A DNA stretch of 64,000 bases, from NCBI GenBank assembly GCA_039810005.1, contig JBDHWD010000003.1, forward strand, positions 3,078 through 67,077, read 5' to 3'. Under the pieces are notes generated by a model. It ran no database searches, was not told the origin of the DNA, and saw only the letters and a program-made list of their open reading frames with translations. This stretch comes from Thermomicrobiales bacterium. GTDB taxonomy: Bacteria > Chloroflexota > Chloroflexia > Thermomicrobiales > CFX8. Below, piece after piece: positions 9,605 through 61,552 of this stretch; positions within the stretch are counted from its first letter, which is position 1, and every line of letters starts with the position of its first letter. The position numbers and the translations under genes were made by a program.

Positions 9605-10756
9605 ATGGAATCAGCGTTGCTTCAGCAGCGGGTCGAGCGCATGCGGGCCGGTATGCGCGATTCCGGTATGGACGCTGCATTTCTCCCGTACGGATCGGTC
9701 TTCCAGTATGTCACCGGTTTGGAGACGCCGATCACCTGGGAGGTCGGTCGGCAGTACGGCGACTGGATCACCGGCCTCGTTTTGCGCCTCGACGCTGAAC
9801 CGGTGCTCATCCTGCGGCCCAGTTGGGTCGGCGAATACGTCGAGGGCTTGCCGTTCGATGTGCTTGTCATGCCTGATGGCGCTGACCCGGACGAGTTTCT
9901 CGCCGAGTCGGTGCGCTCACTCGGTCTTGAAGGGCTGAGCATCGGCGTCCCGAAGATGCTCTGGAGCCAGGCATTGCTCAGCCTCCAGCGCGCGCTGCCG
10001 GCAGCGCAGTTCCTGGCAATGTCAGACGGCTGGTTCGACCGGGTATGCGCCATCAAGGACGCGGGCGAGATCGCCATCCTTGAGCGGGCCGCGCAGATCA
10101 CGGACGCTGCCTTCGCCGATGTCATCGCCCGGATCACACCCGGAATGCTCGACCGCGATCTCGTGATTGAGGTCGACTACCAGCTCAAGCGCCACGGCGG
10201 AGATGGCTTCTCATTCATGCCGGTCGTCGTGGTCGATGGCCACGGCTCACGGTACGCGCGTGCCTGGATTGACCGCGATGAGCCCAAGCCGCTGCTCCAC
10301 GGGACGTCGCTGGCGTTTGACTTGGGCGTGCGCTATCGCGGCTATTGCTCCGACTTCGGCCGCTCGGCATTCATCGGCGACCCGGACCCGACGGCACTAG
10401 CCGCCTGGAATTCGATCACCCGCGTTATTCAGGCTGCAATGAACGTCATGGGCGATGGACAGATCACGCCGAGCGGTGTACACGATTTCGTCGTTGACGA
10501 AGTCACGAAAGACGGCTTCCGCGATCAGTTTTCGTGGTACGCGCTGGGGCACTCGATCGGACTCGATGTGCATGAGGATCCGTGGATGCTGCCGCAATTC
10601 AATGAGCCGATCCGGGCTGGGATGTGCTTCGCGCTGGAACCGAAGATCGGCATGCCCGGCCAGTTCTATGTGCGCTGCGAAGATGTTGTGCTTATTGAAT
10701 CCGAGCGCGCCAGACCATTGACACGGTTCCCCTACGATCCGATTATCATCGCATGA
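9605..10756 (+). CDS. M24-family metallopeptidase (Xaa-Pro aminopeptidase / prolidase type)
   Basis: ORF track 9518..10756. ATG 9605 follows gagggac. Creatinase/prolidase-type N-domain plus pita-bread motifs (FDLGVRYRGYCSDFGR, LGHSIGLDVHEDP, FALEPK, EDVVL). Confidence 0.85.
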   Translation: MESALLQQRVERMRAGMRDSGMDAAFLPYGSVFQYVTGLETPITWEVGRQYGDWITGLVLRLDAEPVLILRPSWVGEYVEGLPFDVLVMPDGADPDEFLAESVRSLGLEGLSIGVPKMLWSQALLSLQRALPAAQFLAMSDGWFDRVCAIKDAGEIAILERAAQITDAAFADVIARITPGMLDRDLVIEVDYQLKRHGGDGFSFMPVVVVDGHGSRYARAWIDRDEPKPLLHGTSLAFDLGVRYRGYCSDFGRSAFIGDPDPTALAAWNSITRVIQAAMNVMGDGQITPSGVHDFVVDEVTKDGFRDQFSWYALGHSIGLDVHEDPWMLPQFNEPIRAGMCFALEPKIGMPGQFYVRCEDVVLIESERARPLTRFPYDPIIIA

Positions 10757-10995
10757 CAGAGAAGCCACGGCGGGATCGCTACAGATTCCCACAAACGCGC
10801 GACTCCCGCATCGCGATGGTCGCGACGCTGGCCGCCTTCCTGATCGTCATGGCGATCTTCATCATCATTATCTTCCGTCAGGGTCGGCTGGAGTTCCCGA
10901 CGCCAACGCCCGAAACATCGCGAGATGTCATCGTGCAGGCCGCGCTGCTCTGGCAGGCGCCGCGCGAGGCGGTATCGACTTCCATCAACGCCTGA
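10753..10995 (+). CDS. Small single-pass membrane protein (80 aa), function unknown
   Basis: ATG overlaps the M24 stop as ATGA (10753-10756). One clear TM segment: IAMVATLAAFLIVMAIFIIIIF. Confidence 0.45.
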   Translation: MTEKPRRDRYRFPQTRDSRIAMVATLAAFLIVMAIFIIIIFRQGRLEFPTPTPETSRDVIVQAALLWQAPREAVSTSINA

Positions 10996-11029
10996 CTGCA
11001 ACCGTCGACCGGCTCGTGCGTCCACAGGA

Positions 11030-11057
11030 AACGCGCCCCCTGTGCGGGGGGCGCGTT
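11030..11057. terminator. 11-bp GC hairpin between convergent genes
   Basis: AACGCGCCCCC tgtgcg GGGGGCGCGTT between 10995 (+ stop) and 11073 (- stop). Confidence 0.5.
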
Positions 11058-11072
11058 CTGCATGCGTGCTGT

Positions 11073-13028
11073 CTATTCGCCGCGTTCAATCCCGAGGTGA
11101 CGGTCATACCAGTCAACGACGCGCTGGAGCAGGTCGAGCTGATGCTTCCGTTCACCGATCGTGTGCGGCTCGCGCGGGTAGGTGACGAGCTGCGTCTCAA
11201 CGCCGAGCGCCTTGAGCCCCTCGTACAGCTCGTAGCCCTGCGACGGTGGGACGCGCGCGTCGGCCGCTCCGTAGAGGATCAGCGTCGGCGTCTTTGCGTT
11301 GCCGATAACGCGAATCGGCGACAACCGCCAGTGGACTTCAACATCGTCGACGACTGAGCCGAGGTAGGCATCGAAGACGCCGCGCACATCGGCGGTTCCC
11401 TGGAAGCTGACCCAGTTGGCGATGCCCGCGCCAGAGACGGCGGCCTTGAAGCGATCGCTGTGGGTGATCGTCCAGTTCGTCAGGAAGCCGCCGCCACTCC
11501 AGCCGCCGACGACGAGGCGCTCCGGATCGGCGATGCCTTGCTCGATCATGGAATCAACGCCGGTAATCAGGTCGTCCCAGTCCGGTTCTCCGTAGCAGCC
11601 GACGATAGCGCAGAGGAAGTCCGAGCCCTGGCCGGACGAGCCGCGTGGGTTCGGCATCAGCACGGCGTAGCCGCGCTGCGCCAGGAACTGGCCCCAGTCG
11701 TGCCAGTTCGCATACAGCTGGCTCGTCCACGCACCGCATGGGCCGCCGTGGATGTGCAGCAACAGCGGGTAGCGCTGGCCCTCTTCATAGCCGACCGGCA
11801 GGATCAGCAAACCTTCGATCTCCATGCCGTCGGTCGACTTCCACGAGACTTCGCGCATCTCACCGAAGTCGTAGTCTCTGATCCACGGGTTGAGATCGGT
11901 GACCTTCTGCGGCGTGCCGCCCACGTCAGCGACATAGAGGTCGGCGAGTGAGTCCATGTTGGCCCGCGCAAAGGCGACACGCGATCCATCGCGCGACACG
12001 CTTAGCGGATTCCCGCTTCGCCCTGCCGATCCCGCCGGCAAGGTGAAGGCGGCTTCGGCCGACTGCTCCTCGATATCAACGAAGCGGATCGCGTGCTGCT
12101 GGCCCTCTTCGATCATTGCCAGCATCCTGTCGCCCTCGGGCAACCAGGCGATGCTGGTGAACGAGCCCTTGTAGTCGGGCAGGACGACAGTCGAATCGCC
12201 GCCGCCAGCCGGGATGGTGCGCAGCGAGAACAGCGACGGCATCTCACGCTCGCAGGCGATGAAGCCCAGCGTCGAGCCATCCGGGCTGTAGAGCGGTCGG
12301 TCGCCGAGGCCGGGGAAGTTGCCGAGGTTGTTCATCGTCCCGTCAAGATCGAACGTCGCCAGATCGGGCGAGAACAGGAAATCAGCCTTCGGACCGGGTG
12401 CGACGATCGCGGCGAGCCCCTTCGAGTCCGGTGCCCAGGAGAACGCGCGACCCGAAAGCGAACCGACATGCAGCCCCTCTGGCGAGATGCGTCGCGGTTC
12501 GGGGAACCCGGTTGCGGCACGCGGGTCTTCGGGCACATCAATCACCCAGAGCGTCGCACGCTTGAGGTCGGCGTCAACGACCAGCCAGTCCTCGCGCTCC
12601 TCCTTGCGCCGCTTCTCATCTGGGGACTCGCCGTCCATCGAGGTAAACGCGATCTGCTTACCGTCCGGCGACCAGTCGAGGTCGGTGACTGGCCCGTCGT
12701 GGTTGGTCAGGCGCACTGCCTCGCCGCCGTTAACGGCGATGACGTAGGCCTGTGGTGAGCCGGACTTCAGGCGGTCCGAGAGAAACGCGACCGACGTACC
12801 GTCCGGCGACCAGCGCGGCGACCCATCGGCGGCCTCGGAAGTCGTCAACCGTCGCGGCTTGCCGCCATCGGAATCGACGATCCAGATGGCGCTCGTCCTG
12901 GCCTCACCTTCGACCGACGCAGCGGTCGTGACGTACGCGACCTGCTTGCCATCCGGTGAGATCTGGATGTCAGCTAGCATCGTTGCAGAGACTGCTACCT
13001 CAAATGGCAGCATACGAATATCGGACAC
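11073..13028 (-). CDS. S9-family serine peptidase (second copy; prolyl oligopeptidase / acylaminoacyl-peptidase type)
   Basis: ORF track 11073..13070. GTG 13028 follows AAAGGAGA. Nucleophile GGWSGGGF; C-terminal YGAADARVP and REPHTI. Propeller repeats (SPRWSPDGTSVAF, DWSPDGKQIAF). Confidence 0.85.
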   Translation of the reverse strand: MSDIRMLPFEVAVSATMLADIQISPDGKQVAYVTTAASVEGEARTSAIWIVDSDGGKPRRLTTSEAADGSPRWSPDGTSVAFLSDRLKSGSPQAYVIAVNGGEAVRLTNHDGPVTDLDWSPDGKQIAFTSMDGESPDEKRRKEEREDWLVVDADLKRATLWVIDVPEDPRAATGFPEPRRISPEGLHVGSLSGRAFSWAPDSKGLAAIVAPGPKADFLFSPDLATFDLDGTMNNLGNFPGLGDRPLYSPDGSTLGFIACEREMPSLFSLRTIPAGGGDSTVVLPDYKGSFTSIAWLPEGDRMLAMIEEGQQHAIRFVDIEEQSAEAAFTLPAGSAGRSGNPLSVSRDGSRVAFARANMDSLADLYVADVGGTPQKVTDLNPWIRDYDFGEMREVSWKSTDGMEIEGLLILPVGYEEGQRYPLLLHIHGGPCGAWTSQLYANWHDWGQFLAQRGYAVLMPNPRGSSGQGSDFLCAIVGCYGEPDWDDLITGVDSMIEQGIADPERLVVGGWSGGGFLTNWTITHSDRFKAAVSGAGIANWVSFQGTADVRGVFDAYLGSVVDDVEVHWRLSPIRVIGNAKTPTLILYGAADARVPPSQGYELYEGLKALGVETQLVTYPREPHTIGERKHQLDLLQRVVDWYDRHLGIERGE

Positions 13029-13038
13029 GGATTCTCCT

Positions 13039-14250
13039 TTATTCCTTGTTCGCCATTGGCGGCTGAACACCTACCTGACGCTCCGGGAGCTTTGCCCAGG
13101 AGTGCATTGGTCGCTCGGAAGTGCGCGGCAGTTGCACACCATCGACGAGTGTCGCGGTCGCACTGAGCAGCTTGCCGCCCTCCCGACGAGCCATGTCAGT
13201 ATCGAAGAAGCTGTAGTCGCCGTCATCGAGCCGGAATACTGCCACGTCGGCAGGAGCGCCGACCGCAAGCGTGCCCATATCCGGACGGCGCATTGCCCTG
13301 GCCGCGTTGGTCGTCGCACGGGCGATCACGTCCGGCAGGCTCATGCCCAGATTGAGGAACTTCGACAACGTCGTCGGCAGATCAAACATGGGCCCCTGCC
13401 GGGCAGTCTGGTGAATGTCGCTGGAAATGACGTCCGGCAAGACGCCCTGATCCAGCATCGCTTCGGTGACCTCGTAGGAGAATGAGCCGGTGCCGTGGCC
13501 AATGTCGAGCACCAACCCCTGCCGTTGCAGCTCGGCGATCTCCGGCAGAATCTTGCCGTTGTCGTCCATGATGCGCATGTCGCCGCCGCTGAAGCAGTGG
13601 GTCAGGATGTCGCCGGGCCGCAGCAACGTCGCGACCTCCTGGATGGTCGGTGGCCCCGAGCCGATGTGCACCATCAACGGTAGCCCGACCTTGTCGGCCA
13701 GCTCGCGAGCGCGCTCGACGGCCAGCATACCAACGCCGCGCGTCGTCCGTCCGTCGATGCGCGCCTTGATGCCGAGGATCAGGTCGCGGTTCTCGTCAAC
13801 AATCGAGGCAGCCAGATCGACGTTCAGATAGTCCGGGTTCGACAGTTCCCACGACGGCGCGACGAGACCAATCGCCGACAGGTTCAGCAGCGCGAAGATA
13901 CGCGCCTTACTCGGCTCAACAACATAGCGCCGGAAGCCGGGGAATGTGTACGAGCCGGCGCTGCCGACATCGAGCCAGGTTGTGACGCCACTGACGGCTG
14001 CGACCGGATCCGCTTCGATCCCCCAGTAGGTCACGCCCCAGTAAATGTGCGTGTGCAGATCGATAAGCCCCGGTGTGACGATCCGGTCGGTCGCGTCGAT
14101 AACCTCCTTCGCGCCGGACGGATCGATACCCGCTGCGACCTCAGCGATCTTGCCGTCTGTGACCGCGACGTCCAGCATGCCATCTACGCCGGACGCGGGG
14201 TCGATGACGCGGCCGCCCCGGATGAGCGTGTCGATTCCTGCTGTTGGCAT
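13039..14250 (-). CDS. Amidohydrolase-superfamily metallohydrolase (dihydroorotase / isoaspartyl-dipeptidase-like)
   Basis: ORF track 13039..14325. ATG 14250 follows GGGAGGGGAG. Motifs IDLHTHIYWG, MVHIGSGPP, GDILTHCF, DIGHG, SSDIH are typical of the TIM-barrel amidohydrolase fold. Confidence 0.8.
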   Translation of the reverse strand: MPTAGIDTLIRGGRVIDPASGVDGMLDVAVTDGKIAEVAAGIDPSGAKEVIDATDRIVTPGLIDLHTHIYWGVTYWGIEADPVAAVSGVTTWLDVGSAGSYTFPGFRRYVVEPSKARIFALLNLSAIGLVAPSWELSNPDYLNVDLAASIVDENRDLILGIKARIDGRTTRGVGMLAVERARELADKVGLPLMVHIGSGPPTIQEVATLLRPGDILTHCFSGGDMRIMDDNGKILPEIAELQRQGLVLDIGHGTGSFSYEVTEAMLDQGVLPDVISSDIHQTARQGPMFDLPTTLSKFLNLGMSLPDVIARATTNAARAMRRPDMGTLAVGAPADVAVFRLDDGDYSFFDTDMARREGGKLLSATATLVDGVQLPRTSERPMHSWAKLPERQVGVQPPMANKE

Positions 14251-15308: not shown

Positions 15309-18300
15309 ATGTCTCGGCAAGCAATCCTCGATCGACTCGACTGGCGCTCGATCGGCCCAACCCGCGGAGGGCGGGTTACAACGGTCAGCGGCGATCCCGA
15401 TCACGTCGGCACGTTCTATTTCGGCTCCACGGGTGGCGGCGTCTGGAAGACGGATGACGCCGGCTCGACCTGGCAGAACGTCTCCGACGGCTACTTTCGC
15501 CGCGCGTCGGTCGGTGCGATTGCCGTTGCTCCTTCCGATCCGAACGTCATCTACGTCGGCATGGGTGAGACAACCATCCGTGGCAATGTCTCACACGGCG
15601 ATGGCATCTATCGCTCAACCGACGCCGGCCAGACCTGGCAGCACATCGGCCTCGGCGCGGTCCACCATATCGGCCGCGTCGTCGTTCATCCGACGAATCC
15701 GGACCTCGTCTGGGTTGCGGCCTTCGGTCACGCCTGGGGTCCCAGCTCCGACCGGGGCGTCTACCGCTCGAAGGACGGTGGCGCAACCTGGGATCGCGTG
15801 CTTTTCGTCAACGAGCGCACCGGCGCGAACTTCATCGAAATCGACCCGATGAATCCGCGCATCCTGTACGCCTGCTTCTGGGAAGCTCAACGTGGCCCGT
15901 ACTACCTGAACAGCGGCGGACCCGGCAGCGCGATCTTCCGCTCGACCGATGGTGGCGACACCTGGCAGGAGATCACGAAGAACCCCGGTATGCCGCCGGG
16001 CGACAAGGGCAAGATGGAGGTCGCTGTCGCCGCGAACGGCAACCGCATCTGGGCGATCGTTGAGGCCGATCAGTTCGAGAAGCACAACGGCGTGTACCGC
16101 TCGGAAGATCGTGGCGAGACCTGGCAGCAGCTCTCCAGCGACACGAATCTCACCGGCCGGCCATGGTATTTCAACCACATCCGCGCCGATCCGCGCGACC
16201 CCAACACTGTCTGGGTACTGAACTTCGAGATCTGGCGCTCGGTCGACGGCGGCTCAAACTACTCCGTCGTCTCCGGCCCGCACGCCGACTACCACGACCT
16301 GTGGATCGATCCGGTCAATACCGACCGCGCGATCCTCGGCGGCGACGGCGGCGGCTGCGTCAGTTTCAACTACGGACAGAGCTGGTCAACGGTCTACAAC
16401 CAGCCGACTGGCGAGTTCTATCACGCTGCCGTTGACTCTCGGTACCCATATCGCGTCTACGGCGCACAGCAGGACAACACGACGATGAGCGTGCCGAGCC
16501 GCTCGAACACCGACGCGATCGCGATGACCGACTGGTACGAGATTGGCGGCGGTGAGTCCGGTTACATCGCCATCCGACCGGACGACCCGAACATCATCTA
16601 CGCCGGCGCCCAGGCCGGCACGCTCACCCGCTACGACCACGCGCGCGGCCAGAAGCTCGACATCGCCGTCTGGCCCGATAGCAATCGCGGGGCAGGAGCG
16701 GAAGGGTATAAGTTCCGCCCGAACTGGACATCGCCGACCATCCTCGCGCCGGACGATCCCAACGTCCTCTACTACGGCACGAACGTCGTCCATCGTTCAA
16801 CCAGCGAAGGCCGAGCCTGGGACGTCATCTCGCCGGATCTGACCCGCGCCGACCCGGAGACGTTGCACTCCTCTGGTGGTGAGATCACGAAGGACAACAG
16901 CGGCGCTGAGGTGTATGCGACCATCTTCACGATCGCCGTCTCGGCGCTCGATCCGCAGGTGATCTGGGCCGGTTCCGATGACGGCCTCGTCCACGTCTCC
17001 CGCAACGGCGGCGAGACCTGGGAGGGCGCGACCCCGTCAACAATCCCCGACTGGGCCCTGATGAGCCTGATCGACGCGTCGCCGCACGATCCGGCGACTG
17101 CCTGGCTGGCAGCCACGCGCTACAAGCTCAACGACTTTCAACCCTACATTTATGTCACGCGCGACTACGGCAAGAGCTGGACGAAGATCACCAACGGTAT
17201 CCCGACCAATGTCTTCACCCGCGTCGTCCGTGAGGATCCGACCGTGCCCGGCCTGCTCTACGCCGGCACCGAGGTCGGCATCTACGTCTCGTTCGACGCT
17301 GGTGAAAGCTGGCAGCCGATGGGTGGCACCGCGCCAGAGACGGCCCGTCTCGGCCTGCCGGTCGTGCCAATTCATGATCTGTTGATCGTCGGCGACGAGC
17401 TGCTCGTCTGCACGCACGGACGCTCGTTCTGGATTCTGGACGACCTGACGCTCGTGCGCCAGCTGGCCAACGACGACGCGACAGGTAAGGCGCATCTCTT
17501 CCAACCGAAGGACACCGTGCGCTCGAAGCGACTGAGCGGATTTGGCAACAGCGAAACGCCCGATCGCAACTACCTGTTCGTTGGCGGCATCGTTCAAACG
17601 TACGTGTCAGTCACGGACTACTGGGGGCAGAAGCGACGACGCTTCCTCGATGCCGGCAATAACCCCGATGACGGCGTGGTCTTCTACTACAACCTCGCCG
17701 ACGAGCCGAAGGAGCCGATCTCGCTGACGATCCTCGACGCCAACGGCAACGAGGTGCGGTCGTTCAGCAGCAAGCCGAAGAATGGCAGCGGCGACGCGAA
17801 GGAGACGTACATTCCCGCAATCGCCGGGCTGAATCGTTTCGTCTGGGACATGCGCTATCCCGACGCCGTCAGGCTGGTGGCCAAGGGCGGCGACCAGGCC
17901 GCGACGGCTGGGCCGCGTGCTGTGCCGGGTCAATACGAAGCGCGGCTGGTCGTTGGAGACGCGACCTCCTCGCAACCTTTCACCATCCTGAAGGACCCGC
18001 GCTACGATGCGACGCCGGAGGACTTACAGGCGCAGTTCGACTTCCTGATCCAGGTGCGCGACAAGCTCTCCAAGACAAACACCGCGATCAATCGCATCCG
18101 CTCGGCCCGCGATCAGATTGAGCGCTGGATCGAGCGCACGAAGGACAGCGAGGCCGGAGAAACGATCGCGGCTAAGGGCAACGAGATCAAGGACGCGATT
18201 GGCGCGGTCGAAGCGGAACTGATCCAGGTGCGCGCCAACAGCCCGAAGGACACGCTCGCCCTGCCGGTGATGCTCAACTCCAAGCTCGCTCGGGTCGCAA

Positions 18301-18482
18301 ATGCGGCGGCAAGCGCCGACGAGCCGCCGACGCGCCAGGCGCAGGATGTCTTTGCTGAGCTTTCGCAACGCGTTGACGAGCAGGTCGCTCGTGTCAACGA
18401 GACGCTCAAGCGCGAAATACCGGCGTTCAACGCTCTCGTCAACGCGGCCAATCTCGACCCGGTCGTGATTGGCGACGAGTAA
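15309..18482 (+). CDS. Large BNR/Asp-box repeat protein (sortilin/Vps10-like, 1057 aa)
   Basis: At least nine Asp-box repeats (S/T-x-D-x-G-x-T/S-W): TDDAGSTWQ, STDAGQTWQ, SKDGGATWD, STDGGDTWQ, SEDRGETWQ, SRNGGETWE, TRDYGKSWT, SFDAGESWQ. RBS gaaaggaga. Confidence 0.8.
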   Translation: MSRQAILDRLDWRSIGPTRGGRVTTVSGDPDHVGTFYFGSTGGGVWKTDDAGSTWQNVSDGYFRRASVGAIAVAPSDPNVIYVGMGETTIRGNVSHGDGIYRSTDAGQTWQHIGLGAVHHIGRVVVHPTNPDLVWVAAFGHAWGPSSDRGVYRSKDGGATWDRVLFVNERTGANFIEIDPMNPRILYACFWEAQRGPYYLNSGGPGSAIFRSTDGGDTWQEITKNPGMPPGDKGKMEVAVAANGNRIWAIVEADQFEKHNGVYRSEDRGETWQQLSSDTNLTGRPWYFNHIRADPRDPNTVWVLNFEIWRSVDGGSNYSVVSGPHADYHDLWIDPVNTDRAILGGDGGGCVSFNYGQSWSTVYNQPTGEFYHAAVDSRYPYRVYGAQQDNTTMSVPSRSNTDAIAMTDWYEIGGGESGYIAIRPDDPNIIYAGAQAGTLTRYDHARGQKLDIAVWPDSNRGAGAEGYKFRPNWTSPTILAPDDPNVLYYGTNVVHRSTSEGRAWDVISPDLTRADPETLHSSGGEITKDNSGAEVYATIFTIAVSALDPQVIWAGSDDGLVHVSRNGGETWEGATPSTIPDWALMSLIDASPHDPATAWLAATRYKLNDFQPYIYVTRDYGKSWTKITNGIPTNVFTRVVREDPTVPGLLYAGTEVGIYVSFDAGESWQPMGGTAPETARLGLPVVPIHDLLIVGDELLVCTHGRSFWILDDLTLVRQLANDDATGKAHLFQPKDTVRSKRLSGFGNSETPDRNYLFVGGIVQTYVSVTDYWGQKRRRFLDAGNNPDDGVVFYYNLADEPKEPISLTILDANGNEVRSFSSKPKNGSGDAKETYIPAIAGLNRFVWDMRYPDAVRLVAKGGDQAATAGPRAVPGQYEARLVVGDATSSQPFTILKDPRYDATPEDLQAQFDFLIQVRDKLSKTNTAINRIRSARDQIERWIERTKDSEAGETIAAKGNEIKDAIGAVEAELIQVRANSPKDTLALPVMLNSKLARVANAAASADEPPTRQAQDVFAELSQRVDEQVARVNETLKREIPAFNALVNAANLDPVVIGDE

Positions 18483-18578
18483 CGTCATATCCAGCCCGGG
18501 CATCTTTGATTGGGGAGGGCAAATGTGCCCGCCCCACGTCTCGGGGCAGACCCGAGTGATAGCAGGGAGCAACCTGAC

Positions 18579-19544
18579 GTGGCTTCATCACCAGAAGGGA
18601 CAGTCGGAATCGTCGTCGGCAGCGCCAACGCGCGAGTCGGCATGCAGGCCGCGATCGACGTGCTGAAGGATGGGGGCAGCGCGCTCGATGCCGCCATCGC
18701 CGCCGTGCGCTGTGTCGAGGATAACCTGGAGGACTTTGGGGTCGGCACCGGCGGTATCCCGAACCTGCTCGGCGAGGTTGAGCTCGACGCGACGGTCATG
18801 GACGGCAAGACGCTGGCGGCCGGTGCGGTCGGCGCAGTCAAGGGCTACCCGCACCCGATCGACATCGCCCGCAAGGTGATGGAGGAGACGCCGCACGTCA
18901 TGCTCGCCGGCACAGGCGCGGAGCTTTTCGCCGAAGCGCACGGCTTCGAGAAGGCCGAGCTGCTGACGCCGGAAGCCCGCGAGGTCTGGCGCGCCCGCAT
19001 CATCGGCGATGTCGAGACGTCCAGCAACGCCTACGAAGACCAGTACTCGACCTACATGACGACAGTGCGCCACTGGAAAGAGCTCCTGCACGACAAGATC
19101 TTCGGCACGACGAACGTCATCGCGCGCGACCTGCAGGGCAACATCGCCTGCGCTGTCTCAACCTCCGGCTGGGGCTTCAAGTGGCCGGGCCGCCTCGGCG
19201 ACTCGCCGATCATCGGCGCAGGCAACTACGCCGACAATCGCTACGGCTCGGCCGCTTGCACCGGACGCGGCGAGATGGCGATTCGCTGCGCATCGGCCCA
19301 CAGCGTCGTGACCTACCTGCGTTTCGGCATGTCGCTGGAAGAAGCGCTTACGACGGCGATGCAGGATCTCAGCCACCTCGTCGACCCGTACGCCGAGCGC
19401 TCGAACGTCATGAACATCGTCGCGATGGATGCGCTCGGCAATGTCAACGCCGCATCCACCGCCGAGGGTGCGGGCTATGTCGTCCAGACCGTCGAGATGG
19501 ATGAGTTCGAAGAGCGAACGCGAATGGTTGTGCCGCTGGGATAA
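18579..19544 (+). CDS. Ntn-hydrolase isoaspartyl peptidase / L-asparaginase (Asparaginase_2 family)
   Basis: ORF track 18510..19544. GTG 18579 follows AGGGAG. Autoprocessing/nucleophile region IFGTTNVIARD, then STSGWGFKWPGRLGDSPIIGAGNYAD. Confidence 0.8.
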   Translation: MASSPEGTVGIVVGSANARVGMQAAIDVLKDGGSALDAAIAAVRCVEDNLEDFGVGTGGIPNLLGEVELDATVMDGKTLAAGAVGAVKGYPHPIDIARKVMEETPHVMLAGTGAELFAEAHGFEKAELLTPEAREVWRARIIGDVETSSNAYEDQYSTYMTTVRHWKELLHDKIFGTTNVIARDLQGNIACAVSTSGWGFKWPGRLGDSPIIGAGNYADNRYGSAACTGRGEMAIRCASAHSVVTYLRFGMSLEEALTTAMQDLSHLVDPYAERSNVMNIVAMDALGNVNAASTAEGAGYVVQTVEMDEFEERTRMVVPLG

Positions 19545-19559
19545 CGGCAGCGTCCGGAC

Positions 19560-19587
19560 GTCAGCCGCGCCGATTGGCGCGGCTGAC
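19560..19587. terminator. Perfect 12-bp hairpin between convergent genes
   Basis: GTCAGCCGCGCC gatt GGCGCGGCTGAC between 19544 (+ stop) and 19611 (- stop). No U-tract. Confidence 0.5.
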
Positions 19588-19610
19588 TCATCGGCGAGAG
19601 AGCCGGCCGC

Positions 19611-22600
19611 CTAATTCGCCCGCACCACCTCGTCATCCGAGCTCAGCGTGTCCTCGTTCCGCCTGCTGCCCCAGACCTGGACGCCGGTGCCGCCGAAATC
19701 GCCGTCCCAGATCAGGCCCGTGCATTGCCGGCGCAACAGGTTCTTCCAGATTTGTGCATTCTCGAATGTCTCTTCGTCCGACGAGAAGATGCTGAACACC
19801 GACCGCGCTGCGACGACGATGACCTTGCGGCGCGCGCGGCTGAGCGCGACGGTCAGGCGGCGCGGGTCCATCAGGAACTTGCTGGCGGATACCAGATAGT
19901 GCGGGTCGCTCTCGGTCGCGCTGTAGACGATGACCATGCGCTCGTCGCCCTGGAACCGTTCGACCGTATCAACCGACGAGCGCACGATGAGGCCTTCGTC
20001 ATCGCGCTCGGACAGCACCGGTAGCGCCTCCTGTAGCGCGGCGCGTTGCGCTCGGTGCGGCACAACGACGCCGAGCCCCGATCGGCAATCGAGCTCGTAG
20101 ACCTCGGCCAGCGCGTTCAGCACTGGAGCGATGAGCTCCTGCTCAAACTGGTTGCGCAATTGGCTGGCATCCTCGTTGTGGACGACGACGACAATCGGGT
20201 AGTCCGGCGATAGCACCGCTTCGATGAACGTGCCCAGTCCAAGCTGGGATGGAAGCGTCGCGCGCTCACGCGAATGGAAGTCGATGCCGTCCTTCGAGTA
20301 GATCTCGCGGCGCAGGAACTCAGCCATCTCCTCATGCAGGCGGAAGCTGCGGCTGAAGCGAATCGTCGGTGGCTTCTTCTCCATGAGCATCTCGAAGAGC
20401 GATGCGTAGGTTCGGTACTCCTGGAATGTCCGCCGACGCTCGTTGGCCCAGTCGTGCTTGATAATCGGCGGCATCTGGCGATGGTCGCCGACGACGATCA
20501 GATGGCCGTCCGATGCCAGCGCCAGCGACGCGATCAGCGCCAACGGCAAGTTCATCTGCGATGCCTCGTCGATGATCAGGCACTGGAACAGCTCGTGTCC
20601 CAGGAGATCGTTGGCTTTGAACTTCCCGGCTACCAATTGTCGTAGCCCCAGTGGTGTTCCGCCGACGACGCAGTGCTGTTCGCGTTCGATGCGATTCCAG
20701 CTCGTCGCGCTAAAGCTGCCGCTCGGCGTGCGCTGCAACGGGATGATCGACTCCTCCGGCAGATCGCGGGGCAGCACACGGAAGATCGGCACCCTGGTGA
20801 TGGCCGGATGAAAATACTGGCCGGCGATTGTCGGATGACCGGCAATCAGCTCGTCGAGCTGCTGCTGCACATCGACCAGCTTGCTGAGCAGCACGTCGAT
20901 TGCCGCGTGTGTGTGACACGACACCGAGACGCGGAACGGGATGCCCGCCTCGATCGCGCCCTGGATGCGTGCCAGAATGGCGAACGCGGTCGTGAAGCTC
21001 TTGCCGGTTCCGGGTGGCCCCTGCACCATGAGCACCGGAGCATCGCCATGATCGCGCATGTATTCGAGCTTGCTCAGCTCGAAGTCGTTGAGCAGGTCGG
21101 CTTCGTACAGCGCCTGCAGACCAGCAACGAAGCGCTGCTGCCCAACACGGGCAGCCTCCGGCCATGCCGTCGATTCGGGCAGGTTACCGTCGAGCCATCG
21201 ATAGAGCGTGTGCTTGTCGCCCTCGCCCTCCAGCGTCTCGGCGAGCTTCAGCGAGTGTGAGCCAGTCCAGTCGTTGGGATCTCCATCGAGCATATAAAGG
21301 CGGCCATCATCAAACGGCTGATTCTTGCCCGGCATTGTCGAGAAGATGAACTGATCTGCGCCTCTCCCGCCAAAGGAGCGTAGATCAACATTCGCCCAGG
21401 CTCGTCGCGGCTTCCCATCGCCATCGCGATCGACCGACAGGCCGATGAGTGACCCGCGCAACGCATAGAGCATGGACTTTGCTGTCGGTGTGTATTCACG
21501 ATTGTTGAACCCGGGTCGGCTATCAATCTCTGTGCGCGGATTGATGAGTATCGGCGCGTCACTTCGCAGATTCGTAAGCAGTAAGGTCTCTTCGAGACCA
21601 CAATCGGTGTCGGCTATGTCAAGACGCAACCGTACCGGCGACTCAAGTGCGATCGGCTTCACAGAGTTCTTGATCTCTTTCGCGAGCTCCACCTTTTCCC
21701 CCGGTGGAGTCGCTGCCGTCGCGTCGGCCCAGGCCTTTTCCCGCAACGGCAAACGCCGACGATTCTCCTCGTTCGCGATGCGCACATCGGCACTCTGGTC
21801 GTCATCGAAGTAGCGCACCAGCAGCGTCTCGCCGGAGAGGACGCGTTTCTCCGGTGCCGGACTCCGCGCGGCCCGCCAGGCAGACAGTTCCACGAAGCGC
21901 TCGATCAGCACGAACTCCTTGAGCGCCGAGGCCAGCGAGTGCGACTTGCCGTCAAGCAGATGCAGGTCGGGGAGCAGATACGCCGTCTTGGTTGTGTCCT
22001 GATTCGTCGGCAGGTTGTGCGTGATGTGCTCGAGCGCCTCAAGCCGCCGACGCTCGAAACCAGCGAGGTTCGCCGTAGTGATCGCGCCAAAGCGTCGGTA
22101 CTCCCTGGTTTCGGCGACATCCGGCAGCTCGTCCCAGGCACCGTAGGCGTATTCCAGCGGGATCTGGCTGTTGAACCGCGAGCGAGCCATATACCACGAT
22201 GTGTTGTCTTCGGAATCGAACTTGCCCCAGAAGTCGAAGAGTCGGCCGGCGAACAGCTTGCGATACTCCTCCGGCTCATTCCAGTTGAAGCCCAGCCAGG
22301 CCGCAACCGACTGCAAAGACTGACAGACGAACGGGTAGTTGCGATGCTGGCGAATCTCCTCGGACAGGAAGCTGCCGAGCGCCGAGTCGAAGCTCGCCAT
22401 CTGGGTCATGAAGTCGTAGAGCGGCGTCGCCTCAACGATCGTGCGGAAGTGGCGGGCCAGCGCATCAAGCAGCAGCTTCTGCGTCAGTGGCTCCCAGAAG
22501 ATGAGATGCACCGGCGCGCGCGGCTCCCCGTCGGCGTCCGGCGCGGCCACGTCAATGACACCTTTCAGAACCTCGCTGATCCAGTCCACCAGCAGATGCT

Positions 22601-24047
22601 GCTCAGCCGCTTCGGTGTCCGGAGGGCTGTCGGCCAGCCGCACGATCGTGCGTCGCCGCTCCGCGGACTCCTTGCCGTTTTCCGCGCCAACGATGAGCGC
22701 GCCAAGCATGTAGACACGGTTGTGCAGGTAATCCTCCTGCGCATCAATGTAGACCCGCACGAGATTCGGATGCTGCTCTGGCGTGCTGGCCGGCAGCGTG
22801 CCGTAGCCCTTGTCCGGGATGTAGGACGGCGGCTTCTCGCCATCGTGGCGCATGCGAGACCGGTAGCTCCGTGCGCGCAGCACAAGCTCATCGATCCGCG
22901 GCCCGACCGGCCAGGTCGTCGCAGCGACTTCAGCGAGCAGCTCCTGCCCCGGCGCTGCGACAAGCGTGAAATCCGCTGGCGACTTCGGCTGCTTGAGCGC
23001 AGCCAGGTCGGCCACTGTTCGCAGGCCAATCTGCTGCAGGGCAGTCTTGTCAGTCATGGTCAGATGCGGGATGCCCGACAGGTCGTCGTGCTCGTGCGAC
23101 CACTTCATGCAGTACTCGTTGAAGATGCAGCCGTCGCAGTGGCGGCCAATGTGGAACGGGACGTCCTCGAACGGCTGTGCCGCGACCCGCCGCGCCGTCG
23201 AGTGCTCGCCGGTCACCAGATCCTCGACGGCATCAACGTAGTGCTGCGGATCGCGGACGATCTCAAGGTAGCCGACACTCGTGCCAAGCTGGTCGGCAGC
23301 TTCCTGCCGCTGACGCTCCAGTTCGGCACGTTCCTCGTCGGTCAGGGCCGGATCGGGGCTGAGCGATCCACGGAAGAGAATGGCTATCTCGATCCCAGCC
23401 AGCGGTTCATTCGCCTCGGCAAAGATGGCTGAGATCATGACCTGATAGAAAGCGACCTGGAGACGATGTTCGATCTTTGTGGCCCGCGTCGCCTTCATGT
23501 CTGCGATCAGGATCGACAGACGACCTTCGTCGTCGCGCCGCATCCGCAGCACATCGACCGCACCGCGCATTCGCCAGCCATTCACATCGGCCTGCAAACG
23601 CGGCTGAAACAGCAGTGTCGTTTCGCCAGCCGCCAATGCGCGCGCCTGCGCCAGCACGGCGGCGTTGTCGTCGGTCCACGTGCCACGCTCATGCGCCGGC
23701 TGGCGGAAGCTGCGCGATGGAAATGCAGCTGCCGCCTCGGCCTCAATCTGATCCTCAAATTCCAGGCCGGAGCGCGGAAACAGCAACGGGATCTGCTGCG
23801 CTTGCACGCCGTAATCGGCCATGAAGCCGGTCCCGAGCGTCCGCTCGTGCAGGCGGAAGCGCAGGAAGCGTTCGCACTGCTGCAGGCGGACGAAGCGCGC
23901 GACGTCGGTTGGCGCAATCGTGCGCGTCGCGTGCATATCAAGCGGCGGGAGGCAGGGCTCTGGCATTGGTTGGCGCATTCCTGAACTGTCACAGATGGTC
24001 TGAAGGCTAGGATACGCCATTGTCTCGAAACAAGACAGACGATCCAC
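19611..24047 (-). CDS. Fusion protein: N-terminal Cas4/RecB-like PD-(D/E)xK nuclease with Cys cluster, RNase-H-like middle region, C-terminal SF1B (Dna2/Upf1-like) helicase, 1478 aa
   Basis: Nuclease: GAVDVL, ILIADMKAT (DxK), QVAFYQ, and Cys pattern C(QQCERF)...CDGCIFNEYC. Middle: VYIDAQEDYLHNRVYMLGALIV. Helicase: GPPGTGKS (Walker A), IIDEASQM (Walker B), VGDHRQMPP, TVERFQGDE, VALSRARRKV. Start codon uncertain (GTG 24047 or internal ATGs down to 23936). Confidence 0.85.
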   Translation of the reverse strand: MDRLSCFETMAYPSLQTICDSSGMRQPMPEPCLPPLDMHATRTIAPTDVARFVRLQQCERFLRFRLHERTLGTGFMADYGVQAQQIPLLFPRSGLEFEDQIEAEAAAAFPSRSFRQPAHERGTWTDDNAAVLAQARALAAGETTLLFQPRLQADVNGWRMRGAVDVLRMRRDDEGRLSILIADMKATRATKIEHRLQVAFYQVMISAIFAEANEPLAGIEIAILFRGSLSPDPALTDEERAELERQRQEAADQLGTSVGYLEIVRDPQHYVDAVEDLVTGEHSTARRVAAQPFEDVPFHIGRHCDGCIFNEYCMKWSHEHDDLSGIPHLTMTDKTALQQIGLRTVADLAALKQPKSPADFTLVAAPGQELLAEVAATTWPVGPRIDELVLRARSYRSRMRHDGEKPPSYIPDKGYGTLPASTPEQHPNLVRVYIDAQEDYLHNRVYMLGALIVGAENGKESAERRRTIVRLADSPPDTEAAEQHLLVDWISEVLKGVIDVAAPDADGEPRAPVHLIFWEPLTQKLLLDALARHFRTIVEATPLYDFMTQMASFDSALGSFLSEEIRQHRNYPFVCQSLQSVAAWLGFNWNEPEEYRKLFAGRLFDFWGKFDSEDNTSWYMARSRFNSQIPLEYAYGAWDELPDVAETREYRRFGAITTANLAGFERRRLEALEHITHNLPTNQDTTKTAYLLPDLHLLDGKSHSLASALKEFVLIERFVELSAWRAARSPAPEKRVLSGETLLVRYFDDDQSADVRIANEENRRRLPLREKAWADATAATPPGEKVELAKEIKNSVKPIALESPVRLRLDIADTDCGLEETLLLTNLRSDAPILINPRTEIDSRPGFNNREYTPTAKSMLYALRGSLIGLSVDRDGDGKPRRAWANVDLRSFGGRGADQFIFSTMPGKNQPFDDGRLYMLDGDPNDWTGSHSLKLAETLEGEGDKHTLYRWLDGNLPESTAWPEAARVGQQRFVAGLQALYEADLLNDFELSKLEYMRDHGDAPVLMVQGPPGTGKSFTTAFAILARIQGAIEAGIPFRVSVSCHTHAAIDVLLSKLVDVQQQLDELIAGHPTIAGQYFHPAITRVPIFRVLPRDLPEESIIPLQRTPSGSFSATSWNRIEREQHCVVGGTPLGLRQLVAGKFKANDLLGHELFQCLIIDEASQMNLPLALIASLALASDGHLIVVGDHRQMPPIIKHDWANERRRTFQEYRTYASLFEMLMEKKPPTIRFSRSFRLHEEMAEFLRREIYSKDGIDFHSRERATLPSQLGLGTFIEAVLSPDYPIVVVVHNEDASQLRNQFEQELIAPVLNALAEVYELDCRSGLGVVVPHRAQRAALQEALPVLSERDDEGLIVRSSVDTVERFQGDERMVIVYSATESDPHYLVSASKFLMDPRRLTVALSRARRKVIVVAARSVFSIFSSDEETFENAQIWKNLLRRQCTGLIWDGDFGGTGVQVWGSRRNEDTLSSDDEVVRAN

Positions 24048-24249
24048 GCTTTCCAGCGACCATCGAGCCGATATGACAGTCCCGCTGCTGGCCCGGAGGA
24101 CAGGTACAAAGCCATCCCGAGTGACGGCGTGCCAGCACAGCGACCATCATATTCTCTGTGTCAGACGGTGAGCGGCAACGAAGCCGCACGACTCGCAAGG
24201 GTGCGGGACGTCGATGGGACGCTCATTGATGAGACGAAAGGACAGCGCC

Positions 24250-24348
24250 ATGGATCCGTATACCGCAGGCAGGCTGCTCGATTACAACCGCCAGGAGCTG
24301 GTAAAGCTGCGCGGTTTCCGGAAGTGGAGCGAGTTCTTCCGGAGGTAG
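24250..24348 (+). CDS. Candidate small basic ORF (32 aa; up to 44 aa from ATG 24214)
   Basis: MDPYTAGRLLDYNRQELVKLRGFRKWSEFFRR. AAAGGA sits 7 nt upstream of ATG 24250. A strong intrinsic terminator follows 24 nt after the stop. Too short for the ORF track; no family recognised. Confidence 0.3.
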   Translation: MDPYTAGRLLDYNRQELVKLRGFRKWSEFFRR

Positions 24349-24371: not shown

Positions 24372-24406
24372 AACGGGATGAGCCTTGACGCTCATCCCGT
24401 TTTTCG
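24372..24406 (+). terminator. Rho-independent terminator
   Basis: AACGGGATGAGC cttgac GCTCATCCCGTT followed by TTTTCG (12-bp perfect stem). Confidence 0.65.
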
Positions 24407-60423: not shown

Positions 60424-60457
60424 CGCCGAACGTGGCGTGCTACACTTTCTTCAGACG

Positions 60458-60553
60458 GATGCCAGGGGTGCGCGAGATCGCGCTGAGAGTGCGGGGCGAA
60501 GCCCGCTGACCCTCCGAACCTGATCTGGGTCATACCAGCGAAGGGACGGCATC
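60458..60553 (+). promoter_or_regulatory. TPP (THI-box) riboswitch aptamer
   Basis: GATGCC aGGGGTGCgcgagatcgcgCTGAGAgtgcggggcgaagcccgcTGACCCtccgAACCTGATCTGGgtcATACCAGCGaAGGGAc GGCATC. The conserved CTGAGA, ACCTGATCTGG.TAATACCAGCG.AGGGA core and the P1 pairing (60458-63 with 60548-53) are all present. Confidence 0.9.
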
Positions 60554-60573
60554 GACAACCAGCCTCACCAAGG

Positions 60574-60609
60574 CGCCGTCGACCCATACGGGTCGCGGCG
60601 TTTGTGTTT
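60574..60609 (+). terminator. Riboswitch expression-platform terminator
   Basis: CGCCGTCGACCC atac GGGTCGCGGCG followed by TTTGTGTTT, located between the aptamer and thiD. Confidence 0.7.
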
Positions 60610-60706
60610 CGGGACAGGTGCAGGCGGGGGTCTCCACGGAGGGCGCACCGACCTGGCATATACGAGACCGGCAGTAGCCGGCTTTCGCCCGCCGAGGGAG
60701 GCGTCC

Positions 60707-61552
60707 ATGTCCAATCTCCTGCCGGCCATCAGCCGGCGCATTCCTGCCGCAGTGACAATCGCTGGCTCCGACTCCGGCGCTGGAGCTGGTATTCAGGCCG
60801 ATCTCAAGACGTTCGCCGCACACGGTGTCTACGGCACATCGGTAATTACTGCTGTGACCGCACAAAACACTCGTGGCGTTCAGTCGTTCGCGGCGCTCGA
60901 CCCCGGACTGGTTGCGGCCCAGATTGAAGCCGTCATTGACGACATCAAGCCTGCCGCCGCCAAGACCGGCATGCTGGCGAATGCCGGCATTGTCCGTGTC
61001 ATCGTCGAGGCGCTGGAACATTATCCGGACCTTCCGGTTGTGATCGATCCGGTCGCAAACGCCAAGAGCGGAGACGCGCTGATCGACGCCGAGGCGCTCG
61101 CCGCCCTGCGCAGCGACCTGCTGCCACGCGCCCGCCTGATCACGCCGAACCTGCCCGAGGCGGCGGCGCTAACCGGCCTCCGCGCCGAGACGACCGATGA
61201 CATGCCGCGGGTCGGCGAGGCGCTGCTGGCGCTCGGTGTCGGGGCGGTCGTCGTCAAGGGCGGCCACCTGATCGATCGCGCCGACGACCTGTTCATGGAC
61301 GGCAGCCGCAGCGAGTGGCTCAGCGCCGCGCGTGTCATCACACGCTGCACACACGGGACCGGCTGCACGTTCAGCGCCGCGATCACGGCCAACCTGGCGC
61401 TCGGCCACGAGCTCTTTGAGGCAGTGGTCGCGGCCAAGCGCTATCTCACTGAGGCGTTGATCGCCGGCTACGAAGTCGGCGATGGGCATTCGCCGGTCGA
61501 TCACTTTTACGCCGGAACACGCTTCCCTACAAATGAAAGGGTCATCGCATGA
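60707..61552 (+). CDS. thiD: Hydroxymethylpyrimidine / phosphomethylpyrimidine kinase
   Basis: ORF track 60602..61552. ATG 60707 follows [48 protein letters not shown] ... [10 protein letters not shown]. Confidence 0.9.

Follow-up and report, generated by a model that had tools for sequence, protein, structure and literature searches.

What is a solitary gene for a combined nuclease and helicase doing among the metabolic genes of a Thermomicrobiales bacterium (Chloroflexota)? The gene lies on the minus strand of a 64,000-nucleotide stretch of contig JBDHWD010000003.1 (hereafter, the window), and its product joins a PD-(D/E)xK nuclease, an RNase-H-like domain, and a superfamily 1B (SF1B) helicase in one polypeptide. 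The initial annotation of this stretch held that such a fusion could be either a Dna2-like repair enzyme or a single-gene anti-phage effector and that the sequence alone cannot decide between them. This was a fair judgment, and the further evidence presented here narrows the choice without closing it. The reading we favor, to which we give about an even chance of being right, is that of a resident chromosomal helicase-nuclease, similar to eukaryotic Dna2 and to the bacterial enzyme Bad, that serves genome maintenance and is not dedicated to anti-phage defense. We favor it because of the stable and native chromosomal setting of the gene: synteny is maintained over 52-69% identity, base composition is native, and neither phage homologues nor a recurrent partner gene were found. 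On the other hand, a defense role is kept plausible because the family is sporadically distributed and some of its relatives are plasmid-borne or adjacent to defense genes. The identity of the domains is supported by the agreement of Pfam, NCBIfam, and PDB sequence and fold searches.

Domain architecture and its known counterparts

The gene and its domains are arranged as follows (aa, amino acids, numbered from the GTG codon of the open reading frame, ORF, as first read; all features are on the minus strand).

19611..24047, minus: nuclease-helicase ORF as first read, 1478 codons from GTG, uninterrupted
19611..23966, minus: most likely coding sequence (CDS), 1451 aa from M28
23088..23918, minus: Cas4/AddB-type Fe-S ("iron-staple") PD-(D/E)xK nuclease, aa ~44-320 (Pfam, motifs, Foldseek)
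22773..23087, minus: putative helix-hairpin-helix (HhH)-like linker, aa ~321-425 (after the Cys cluster; short helices in the AlphaFold2, AF2, model)
22008..22772, minus: diverged RNase-H-like (PolB/DnaQ-exonuclease-like) domain, aa ~426-680 (topology, fold matches, conservation)
21048..22007, minus: helical stalk, beta-barrel, and helical bundle, aa ~681-1000 (AF2 models 1 and 2; the alignment with Dna2 5ean_A reaches here)
19773..21047, minus: SF1B (Dna2/Upf1-like) helicase core, aa ~1001-1425 (AAA_11/AAA_12, PDB matches, motifs)
19614..19772, minus: small C-terminal beta-hairpin domain and tail, aa ~1426-1478 (C1442, W1447, and W1459 conserved)

The initial annotation had recognized three parts in this protein: a Cas4/RecB-like nuclease with one plus three cysteines, an RNase-H-like region related to TM0106-type proteins, and a complete Dna2/Upf1-like SF1B motif set. 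All three were borne out, the second one as a fold and not as a canonical active site. The nuclease is matched by the Pfam model PDDEXK_1 (aa 95-313, E 1.6e-9), and in an alignment of 121 sequences (this protein and 120 homologues) residues D165 (motif II), D183-x-K185 (motif III), Q197xxxY201, C304, and C313 are invariant. The Fe-S cysteines follow the pattern C58 plus C304xxC307x5C313, with C58 present in 119 and C307 in 120 of the 121 sequences. Across 26 superfamily members, including haloarchaeal and TM0106-type relatives, D183 is found in 25, and the rest of the nuclease residues are invariant. The AF2 model of aa 28-1000 (predicted local distance difference test, pLDDT, 88.9; predicted template modeling score, pTM, 0.85) has its best PDB fold matches, as detected by Foldseek, in Cas4 SSO0001, human EXO5, and the nuclease domains of AdnAB and AddB. 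The iron-staple arrangement is known from AddB, Dna2, and Cas4 (PMC7430649). The segment that follows the Cys cluster appears HhH-like from its sequence, and positions 192-313 of the TIGR03491 (TM0106) profile align to aa 301-453, which cover the Cys cluster and the linker region.

No Pfam model, PF13482 included, matched the central part of the protein (aa 395-720 alone and several distant relatives, E<=5), and precomputed PF13482 domains are present in 0 of 120 close homologues; the domain was therefore assigned as RNase-H-like from its fold and from intermediate sequences. The AF2 model has the topology β1-β2-β3-αA-β4-αB, which is the order of the RNase-H-like fold, and weak fold matches were obtained to CRN-4, ERI1, foamy-virus RNase H, Argonaute PIWI, and the C-terminal half of UvrC. 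Among predicted viral structures, a 471-aa "RNase_H superfamily protein" ranks second; its alignment covers 639 columns and spans the nuclease and RNase-H-like module (E 1.8e-7). Furthermore, a 1326-aa relative encoded on a 375-kb Chlorohelix plasmid matches TIGR03491 positions 65-417 of 462, that is, through the RNase-H part. The canonical acids, on the other hand, have been lost. The DxE motif reads I-D435-A-Q437-x-D439 (Q437 in 119 of 121 sequences), and the ExoII-equivalent position 522 is variable (E in 66, A in 28, and D in 11 of the 121 sequences; T in this protein), whereas actinobacterial relatives have a Pfam-detectable PF13482 domain with the canonical FDFEGDP (DxE), HYxxYE, and YNxxD motifs. 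Judged by its motifs, the classical DEDD site of this domain is degenerate. Other polar residues are strictly kept: D435, D439, E482, H514, D605, and E632 are invariant and Q523, D545, and D554 nearly so; D439, E482, and H514, which are located on β1, at the start of αA, and on β4, stay invariant across the wider superfamily.

A side observation concerns viruses. Two predicted giant-virus proteins, A0A3G5AGZ9 (Sylvanvirus, 814 aa) and A0A5J6VIM9 (Megaviridae, 471 aa), are the best structural matches in BFVD to the whole nuclease and RNase-H-like module (E ~1e-7), and thus the TM0106-type module is present also in nucleocytoplasmic large DNA viruses.

The helicase half is matched by Pfam AAA_11 and AAA_12 and contains motifs I (GPPGTGKS, 1010-1017), II (DEASQ, 1160-1164), III (GDHRQMPP, 1187-1194), V (TVERFQGxER, 1361-1370), and VI (VALSRA, 1400-1405), all of which are invariant in the 121 sequences. 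For the AF2 model of aa 690-1478 (pLDDT 93.1, pTM 0.91), the best fold match is mouse Dna2 (5ean_A, E 9.8e-26, 792 columns), followed by Upf1, Sen1, SETX, and IGHMBP2. Dna2 is also the best PDB sequence match of the family profile (E 8.9e-24).

The architecture of nuclease, RNase-H-like domain, and AAA domains had been catalogued before. PF13482/COG2251 was assigned to the 3'-5' exonuclease clade by Majorek et al. (2014), who also reported its occurrence with DUF83 (Cas4-like) and, frequently, with tandem AAA domains (PMC3985635). Helicase-fused COG2251/TIGR03491 proteins, for example a ~1200-aa "nuclease" of Knoellia flava, have the same order of nuclease, HhH-like linker, RNase-H-like domain, and AAA_11/AAA_12 SF1B helicase. 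In hhalign comparisons with the actinobacterial family, the helicase aligned with E 1e-29 and the nuclease, Cys cluster, and linker with Prob 91%; the central domain alone against the PF13482-bearing actinobacterial family gave Prob 2.9%, which is not significant, and only the register of that alignment is suggestive. In place of FDFEGDP our protein has IDAQxD, its ExoII acid is variable, and ~250 extra residues (the stalk and beta-barrel) are inserted between the RNase-H-like domain and the motor. It shares with the TM0106 family a Cas4-like nuclease with four Fe-S cysteines and does not have the Pfam-detectable PF13482 domain with DxE, although fold and descent are still supported; as a whole it scores 39.3 bits with TIGR03491 against a cutoff of 97.45, whereas a control protein from locus L020 scores 134.6 bits. 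The protein is therefore best regarded as belonging to a diverged branch, found in Chloroflexota, of the COG2251-type architecture; formally, it is not a member of the family.

To our knowledge, only one bacterial enzyme of this layout, Bad, has been characterized biochemically. Bad of Geobacillus stearothermophilus (WP_053413574) has an Fe-S cluster and is a 5'-3' single-stranded DNA (ssDNA) translocase, a helicase, and an ssDNA endonuclease (Wilkinson et al. 2020, PMC7430649). For its central domain, which is conserved and is not found in eukaryotic Dna2, no homology to any other protein was reportedly detected, and bacterial Dna2-like enzymes were described as sporadic, with a second class in Mycobacteria and Rhodococcus (PMC7430649). 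Compared by its published description, Bad resembles our protein in having an iron-staple Fe-S RecB-family nuclease, a central domain, and a C-terminal SF1B helicase on a single polypeptide (monomeric in the case of Bad) of sporadic distribution. The two differ in length (1245 aa with D150 and K815 in Bad; 1451 aa with D183 and K1016 here) and in the central part, which is TM0106-like here and was described as lacking known homology in Bad. A Bad-sized relative, P0233, has motif spacing nearly identical to that of Bad; we treated this as a coincidence.

An Fe-S RecB-family nuclease located N-terminal to an SF1B helicase within one polypeptide is what defines a Dna2-like enzyme, and our protein has this arrangement. 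As in mouse Dna2 (5EAN/5EAW/5EAX), the Fe-S PD-(D/E)xK nuclease precedes a beta-barrel and the SF1B helicase. However, identity to Dna2 is ~16%, the nuclease fold here is nearer to Cas4, EXO5, and AddB, and Dna2 is devoid of the HhH and RNase-H-like insert; orthology with eukaryotic Dna2 is unlikely. We know of no bacterial RPA, the partner of Dna2. With AddB, AdnA, AdnB, Cas4, and EXO5, the protein shares the iron-staple fold, the single N-terminal Cys with CxxCx5C, motifs II and III, and QxxxY, but those nucleases are joined to SF1A (UvrD-like) motors or stand alone, unlike the SF1B fusion described here. Nor is it a CRISPR Cas4, as its TIGR00372 score is 14.2 bits against a cutoff of 65 and its neighbors are metabolic genes.

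Distribution, genomic setting, and rival explanations

A homologue search over 5.8 billion proteins produced 273 matches among the scored candidates. Nearly all of the best 120 of these are full length (~1400-1500 aa) and 47-89% identical to our protein, and the named sequences among them all come from Chloroflexota (Thermomicrobiales and Ktedonobacterales). An exhaustive search with aa 28-1000 among 1.84 billion representatives found 715 clusters (E<=1e-3), and a pattern scan of species-genome contigs identified at least 20 loci. Full-length relatives in species genomes occur in Chloroflexus, Oscillochloris, Abditibacteriaceae, and Gemmataceae, among others; a shorter subgroup (~1250-1370 aa) is found in Ktedonobacterales, Acidobacteriota, and Poribacteria; and distant relatives of the same architecture are encoded on haloarchaeal plasmids (21-23% identity) and in Actinobacteria. 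Among 50,697 phage records there was no homologue except for one weak match to the nuclease only. In one Acidobacteriota metagenome-assembled genome (MAG; locus L018), the homologue is split between different frames, with the nuclease and RNase-H-like part at 9956-12148 and the helicase at 12186-14135; the gene may be genuinely split, or the long-read MAG may contain a frameshift error.

In the window, the gene is surrounded by genes for peptidases, an amidohydrolase, a sortilin/BNR protein, asparaginase, GlgX, ABC transporters, MurT, LysM/M23 and MMPL proteins, and the like. Throughout these 64 kb we found no repair or defense neighbors (as the initial annotation had noted for the surroundings of the gene), no defense island, no mobile-element genes, and no CRISPR array, CRISPR-like repeats, or cas genes. 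The GC content of the gene (0.630) and of its third codon positions (GC3, 0.787) is like that of its neighbors. Orthologues at 66% and 69% identity maintain the arrangement glgX, nuclease-helicase gene, asparaginase, M55, amidohydrolase, S9; orthologues at 52% identity still adjoin isoamylase and amylase genes; and more distant members are solitary and found in unrelated metabolic settings. No recurrent partner family was detected among 133 neighbor ORFs of 15 species loci. One haloarchaeal relative is located among genes for DNA polymerase, flap endonuclease (FEN), ThyA, and DHFR.

Individual loci of other homologues gave observations of their own. In Oscillochloris sp. ZM17-4 (L010), the homologue is followed, 3.6 kb downstream, by a complete Wadjet JetC gene (17823-21104, E 6e-266), and in L018 a fragmented Dcm methylase lies ~1.7 kb downstream. 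On a Salinirubellus plasmid (L031, 4726-13416), co-directional genes encode a "ribonuclease H-like domain protein," a DEAD/DEAH helicase, and then the nuclease-helicase, with ThiF-family, tyrosyl-DNA phosphodiesterase, and integrase genes nearby; this gene run may be a multi-gene system in archaea.

Several results weigh against a genome-maintenance role and have to be set beside the stable setting of the gene. With only 715 clusters, the family is small, so this is not a universal repair gene. Its distribution across phyla is patchy, and in a neighbor-joining tree the Gemmataceae and Abditibacteriaceae sequences are interleaved among those of Chloroflexota, which implies some horizontal transfer. 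No LexA box (GAAC-N4-GTTC, Gram-positive/Dehalococcoides-type; Cheo-type) was found upstream of the gene, the count in the window being that of chance; SOS control is thus not indicated. The helicase core matches the RNA helicases Upf1, Sen1, and IGHMBP2 about as well as Dna2. When homologue neighborhoods were checked with PADLOC, defense genes were flagged near 2 of the 15 sampled bacterial loci only (the JetC and Dcm genes just mentioned). Some haloarchaeal relatives, encoded on plasmids, adjoin a restriction endonuclease gene, or helicase and RNase-H-like genes with an integrase. Finally, the gene for Bad itself is reported to adjoin, in Geobacilli, a Type III-like methyltransferase gene; no methyltransferase gene adjoins the homologue in the window or in five Pfam-annotated related contexts, the fragmented Dcm in L018 being the only instance.

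Many of the same observations can be read in favor of a single-gene anti-phage or anti-plasmid effector comparable to Nhi, Hhe, and Hna, whose motor would load on ssDNA ends or replication intermediates of the invader while the Fe-S nuclease, possibly together with the RNase-H-like domain, degrades them. We regard this as possible, though doubtful. The patchy spread with its signs of horizontal transfer, the plasmid relatives next to restriction or integrase genes, JetC or Dcm less than 4 kb away in the two loci, and the methyltransferase linkage of Bad all agree with it, as does the fact that the top model-library matches of the helicase core are MkoA, DpdJ, PLuB, ProA, and Hhe. However, Mokosh MkoA/MkoC, Dpd DpdJ, PLuB, ProA, and Hhe have in common with our protein the generic SF1B AAA_11/AAA_12 core only (aa ~1007-1437, E to 1e-37), at scores far under the curated family cutoffs, and they have no counterpart to its N-terminal 1000 aa. 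In the PADLOC-DB v2 check, matches (MkoA, DpdJ, MkoC, and PDC-S37) were restricted to the helicase core; a full-length system match was not obtained, and the partner genes are missing here, including any partner for self/non-self discrimination. Five other long contigs are, like the window, free of defense islands and mobile-element genes. A glgX-adjacent position that is stable over 52-69% identity is unusual for fast-turnover defense genes, and the native base composition points in the same direction.

The comparable similarity of the helicase core to Upf1, Sen1/SETX, IGHMBP2, and Dna2 also raises the question of RNA. An Upf1/Sen1-like 5'-3' helicase and an RNase-H fold with invariant D, E, H, and D residues at β1, αA, β4, and a later helix might strip RNA from hybrids (R-loops or primers), with the PD-(D/E)xK nuclease as an accessory. 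We consider this quite improbable: the RNase-H-like domain traces back to the PF13482/PolB-type 3'-5' DNA exonuclease clade rather than to RNase H proper (PMC3985635), the nuclease belongs to the DNA-specific Cas4/AddB/EXO5 type and is followed by an HhH-like segment, and the best PDB sequence match and the best fold match are both Dna2. The relatives on the Chlorohelix plasmid and on several haloarchaeal plasmids would fit a further explanation, in which the gene does not belong to the host but serves an integrated mobile element or megaplasmid, as cargo or in replication. At this locus such an origin is largely refuted and, in our estimate, extremely unlikely, as no integrase, transposase, repeats, or tRNA-linked island border is seen around the gene, its flanks are syntenic core metabolic genes, its GC and GC3 are native, and phage genomes contain nothing similar beyond the nuclease-only match mentioned above. 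A resident enzyme of genome maintenance remains the reading that we prefer.

Gene boundaries and the small gene upstream

The boundaries of the gene and the intergenic region at its 5' side contain the following features; L032, L033, L021, and L022 are related Thermomicrobiales loci, and L024 is an orthologous locus.

24009..24037, minus: promoter-like block TGTCTT-17-TATCCT, upstream of M28; kept in the window and L032, partly in L024
19560-19571 and 19576-19587 (arms), no strand assigned: hairpin with a perfect 12-bp stem, folding z -4.84
24250..24348, plus: conserved 32-aa ORF (MDPYTAGRLLDYNRQELVKLRGFRKWSEFFRR), divergent from the helicase gene; a neighbor, not a demonstrated part of a system
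L032 7626-7721, L033 7449-7544, and L021 9449-9544, all minus: counterparts of the 32-aa ORF
24372..24401, plus: intrinsic-terminator-like hairpin, 12 pairs and a T-run, downstream of the 32-aa ORF
24088..24103, no strand assigned: palindrome CTGTCC-N4-GGACAG (CTGT-N8-ACAG pattern), one mismatch in the window
L021 9686-9701, L022 3073-3088, and L033 7686-7701: counterparts of the palindrome

The ORF of 1478 aa that the initial annotation had read from 19611 to 24047 is real, but its start is most likely M28 and not the GTG, which gives a CDS of 19611..23966 and a protein of 1451 aa. We place the start there because the closest database homologue is 1451 aa long, is 100% identical, and therefore begins at M28; because most of the 120 aligned homologues have gaps opposite residues 1-26; and because a promoter-like block (24037-24009) is situated within the first 13 codons of the GTG-started ORF. 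By its sequence, this block is a putative promoter of the helicase gene. A sigma-70 promoter scan of the region found none, such a scan being uninformative for this phylum. At the 3' end, the hairpin proposed earlier was recovered with 12 of 12 positions paired; it has no T-run and is located (19560..19587) between two convergent gene ends, that of the asparaginase gene at 19544 and that of the nuclease-helicase at 19611. The gene was also correctly called monocistronic, as asparaginase converges on its 3' end and, at the 5' side, the 32-aa ORF and then glgX are on the opposite strand. The 430 bp upstream, in contrast, are not purely regulatory as had been suggested: they do contain the promoter-like block, but also an independent 32-aa gene with its own leader and terminator.

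The 32-aa ORF has the same length and 53-72% identity in L032, L033, and L021/L022. It is not present in L024 or in any more distant locus, and as a general partner of the helicase it was rejected, since it is confined to this Thermomicrobiales lineage and no other locus has one. The palindrome is found at a constant ~142-150 nt upstream of the start codon of the small ORF, and it is not present in L024, where the small ORF is also missing. Because its spacing tracks the small ORF and not the start of the helicase gene, and because both vanish together, we assign the palindrome to the small-ORF unit and reject it as an operator of the helicase gene. Palindrome and ORF are separated by a conserved leader of ~100 nt that contains a TAT(T/C/G)CT -10-like element; of 28 pairs predicted by RNAalifold, 7 are maintained by change on both sides, and there is no match in Rfam. 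This region might serve the small gene as an operator or as a structured leader. Elsewhere in the window, a thiamine pyrophosphate (TPP) riboswitch (RF00059, 71.8 bits) is found at 60454-60564 on the plus strand, upstream of the ORF 60602-61552.

Proposed mechanism and what it means

How might such an enzyme work in genome maintenance? By analogy with the Dna2/Upf1/RecD class and with Bad, the C-terminal SF1B motor would hydrolyze ATP and move 5'->3' on ssDNA; all characterized members of this class that we are aware of have this polarity. The N-terminal nuclease, presumably stabilized by its four-cysteine Fe-S cluster, would cut ssDNA threaded past it, as its intact motifs suggest, while the HhH-like segment and the beta-barrel may hold the DNA junction. 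The RNase-H-like domain probably has its origin in PF13482, the 3'-5'-exonuclease-like domain of TM0106/COG2251 proteins. Because the canonical DxE and ExoII acids are lost, it is most likely a DNA-binding or strand-separating scaffold, or else a non-canonical second nuclease built around D435/D439/E482/H514/D605/E632. The role of the whole enzyme would then be the processing of ssDNA ends, flaps, or stalled forks.

Dna2-type nuclease-helicase fusions are central to eukaryotic replication and repair. A bolder version of the maintenance reading, which we find improbable, is that the protein is a self-contained machine for the resection of double-strand breaks, specific to Chloroflexota and a few other phyla, in which a single SF1B motor carries two nucleases, with the Fe-S nuclease acting on the 5' strand and a re-tooled RNase-H-fold site (the six residues just named) on the 3' strand or on RNA:DNA hybrids, and that it functionally replaces AddAB, RecBCD, or AdnAB where they are missing. 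If this were true, the enzyme would correspond in bacteria to Dna2, but with a second nuclease of its own.

Whichever role applies, the locus is part of a Chloroflexota clade, well populated and strongly conserved, in which a TM0106 module is joined to an SF1B helicase, and an "AAA domain-containing protein" can now be annotated with this specific architecture. The RNase-H-like domain, with many invariant polar residues and without the DEDD site, offers a tractable case of either inactivation or re-invention of an active site. Furthermore, owing to its conserved chromosomal position, this gene is a cleaner case than its plasmid- and island-borne relatives for the question of maintenance versus immunity.

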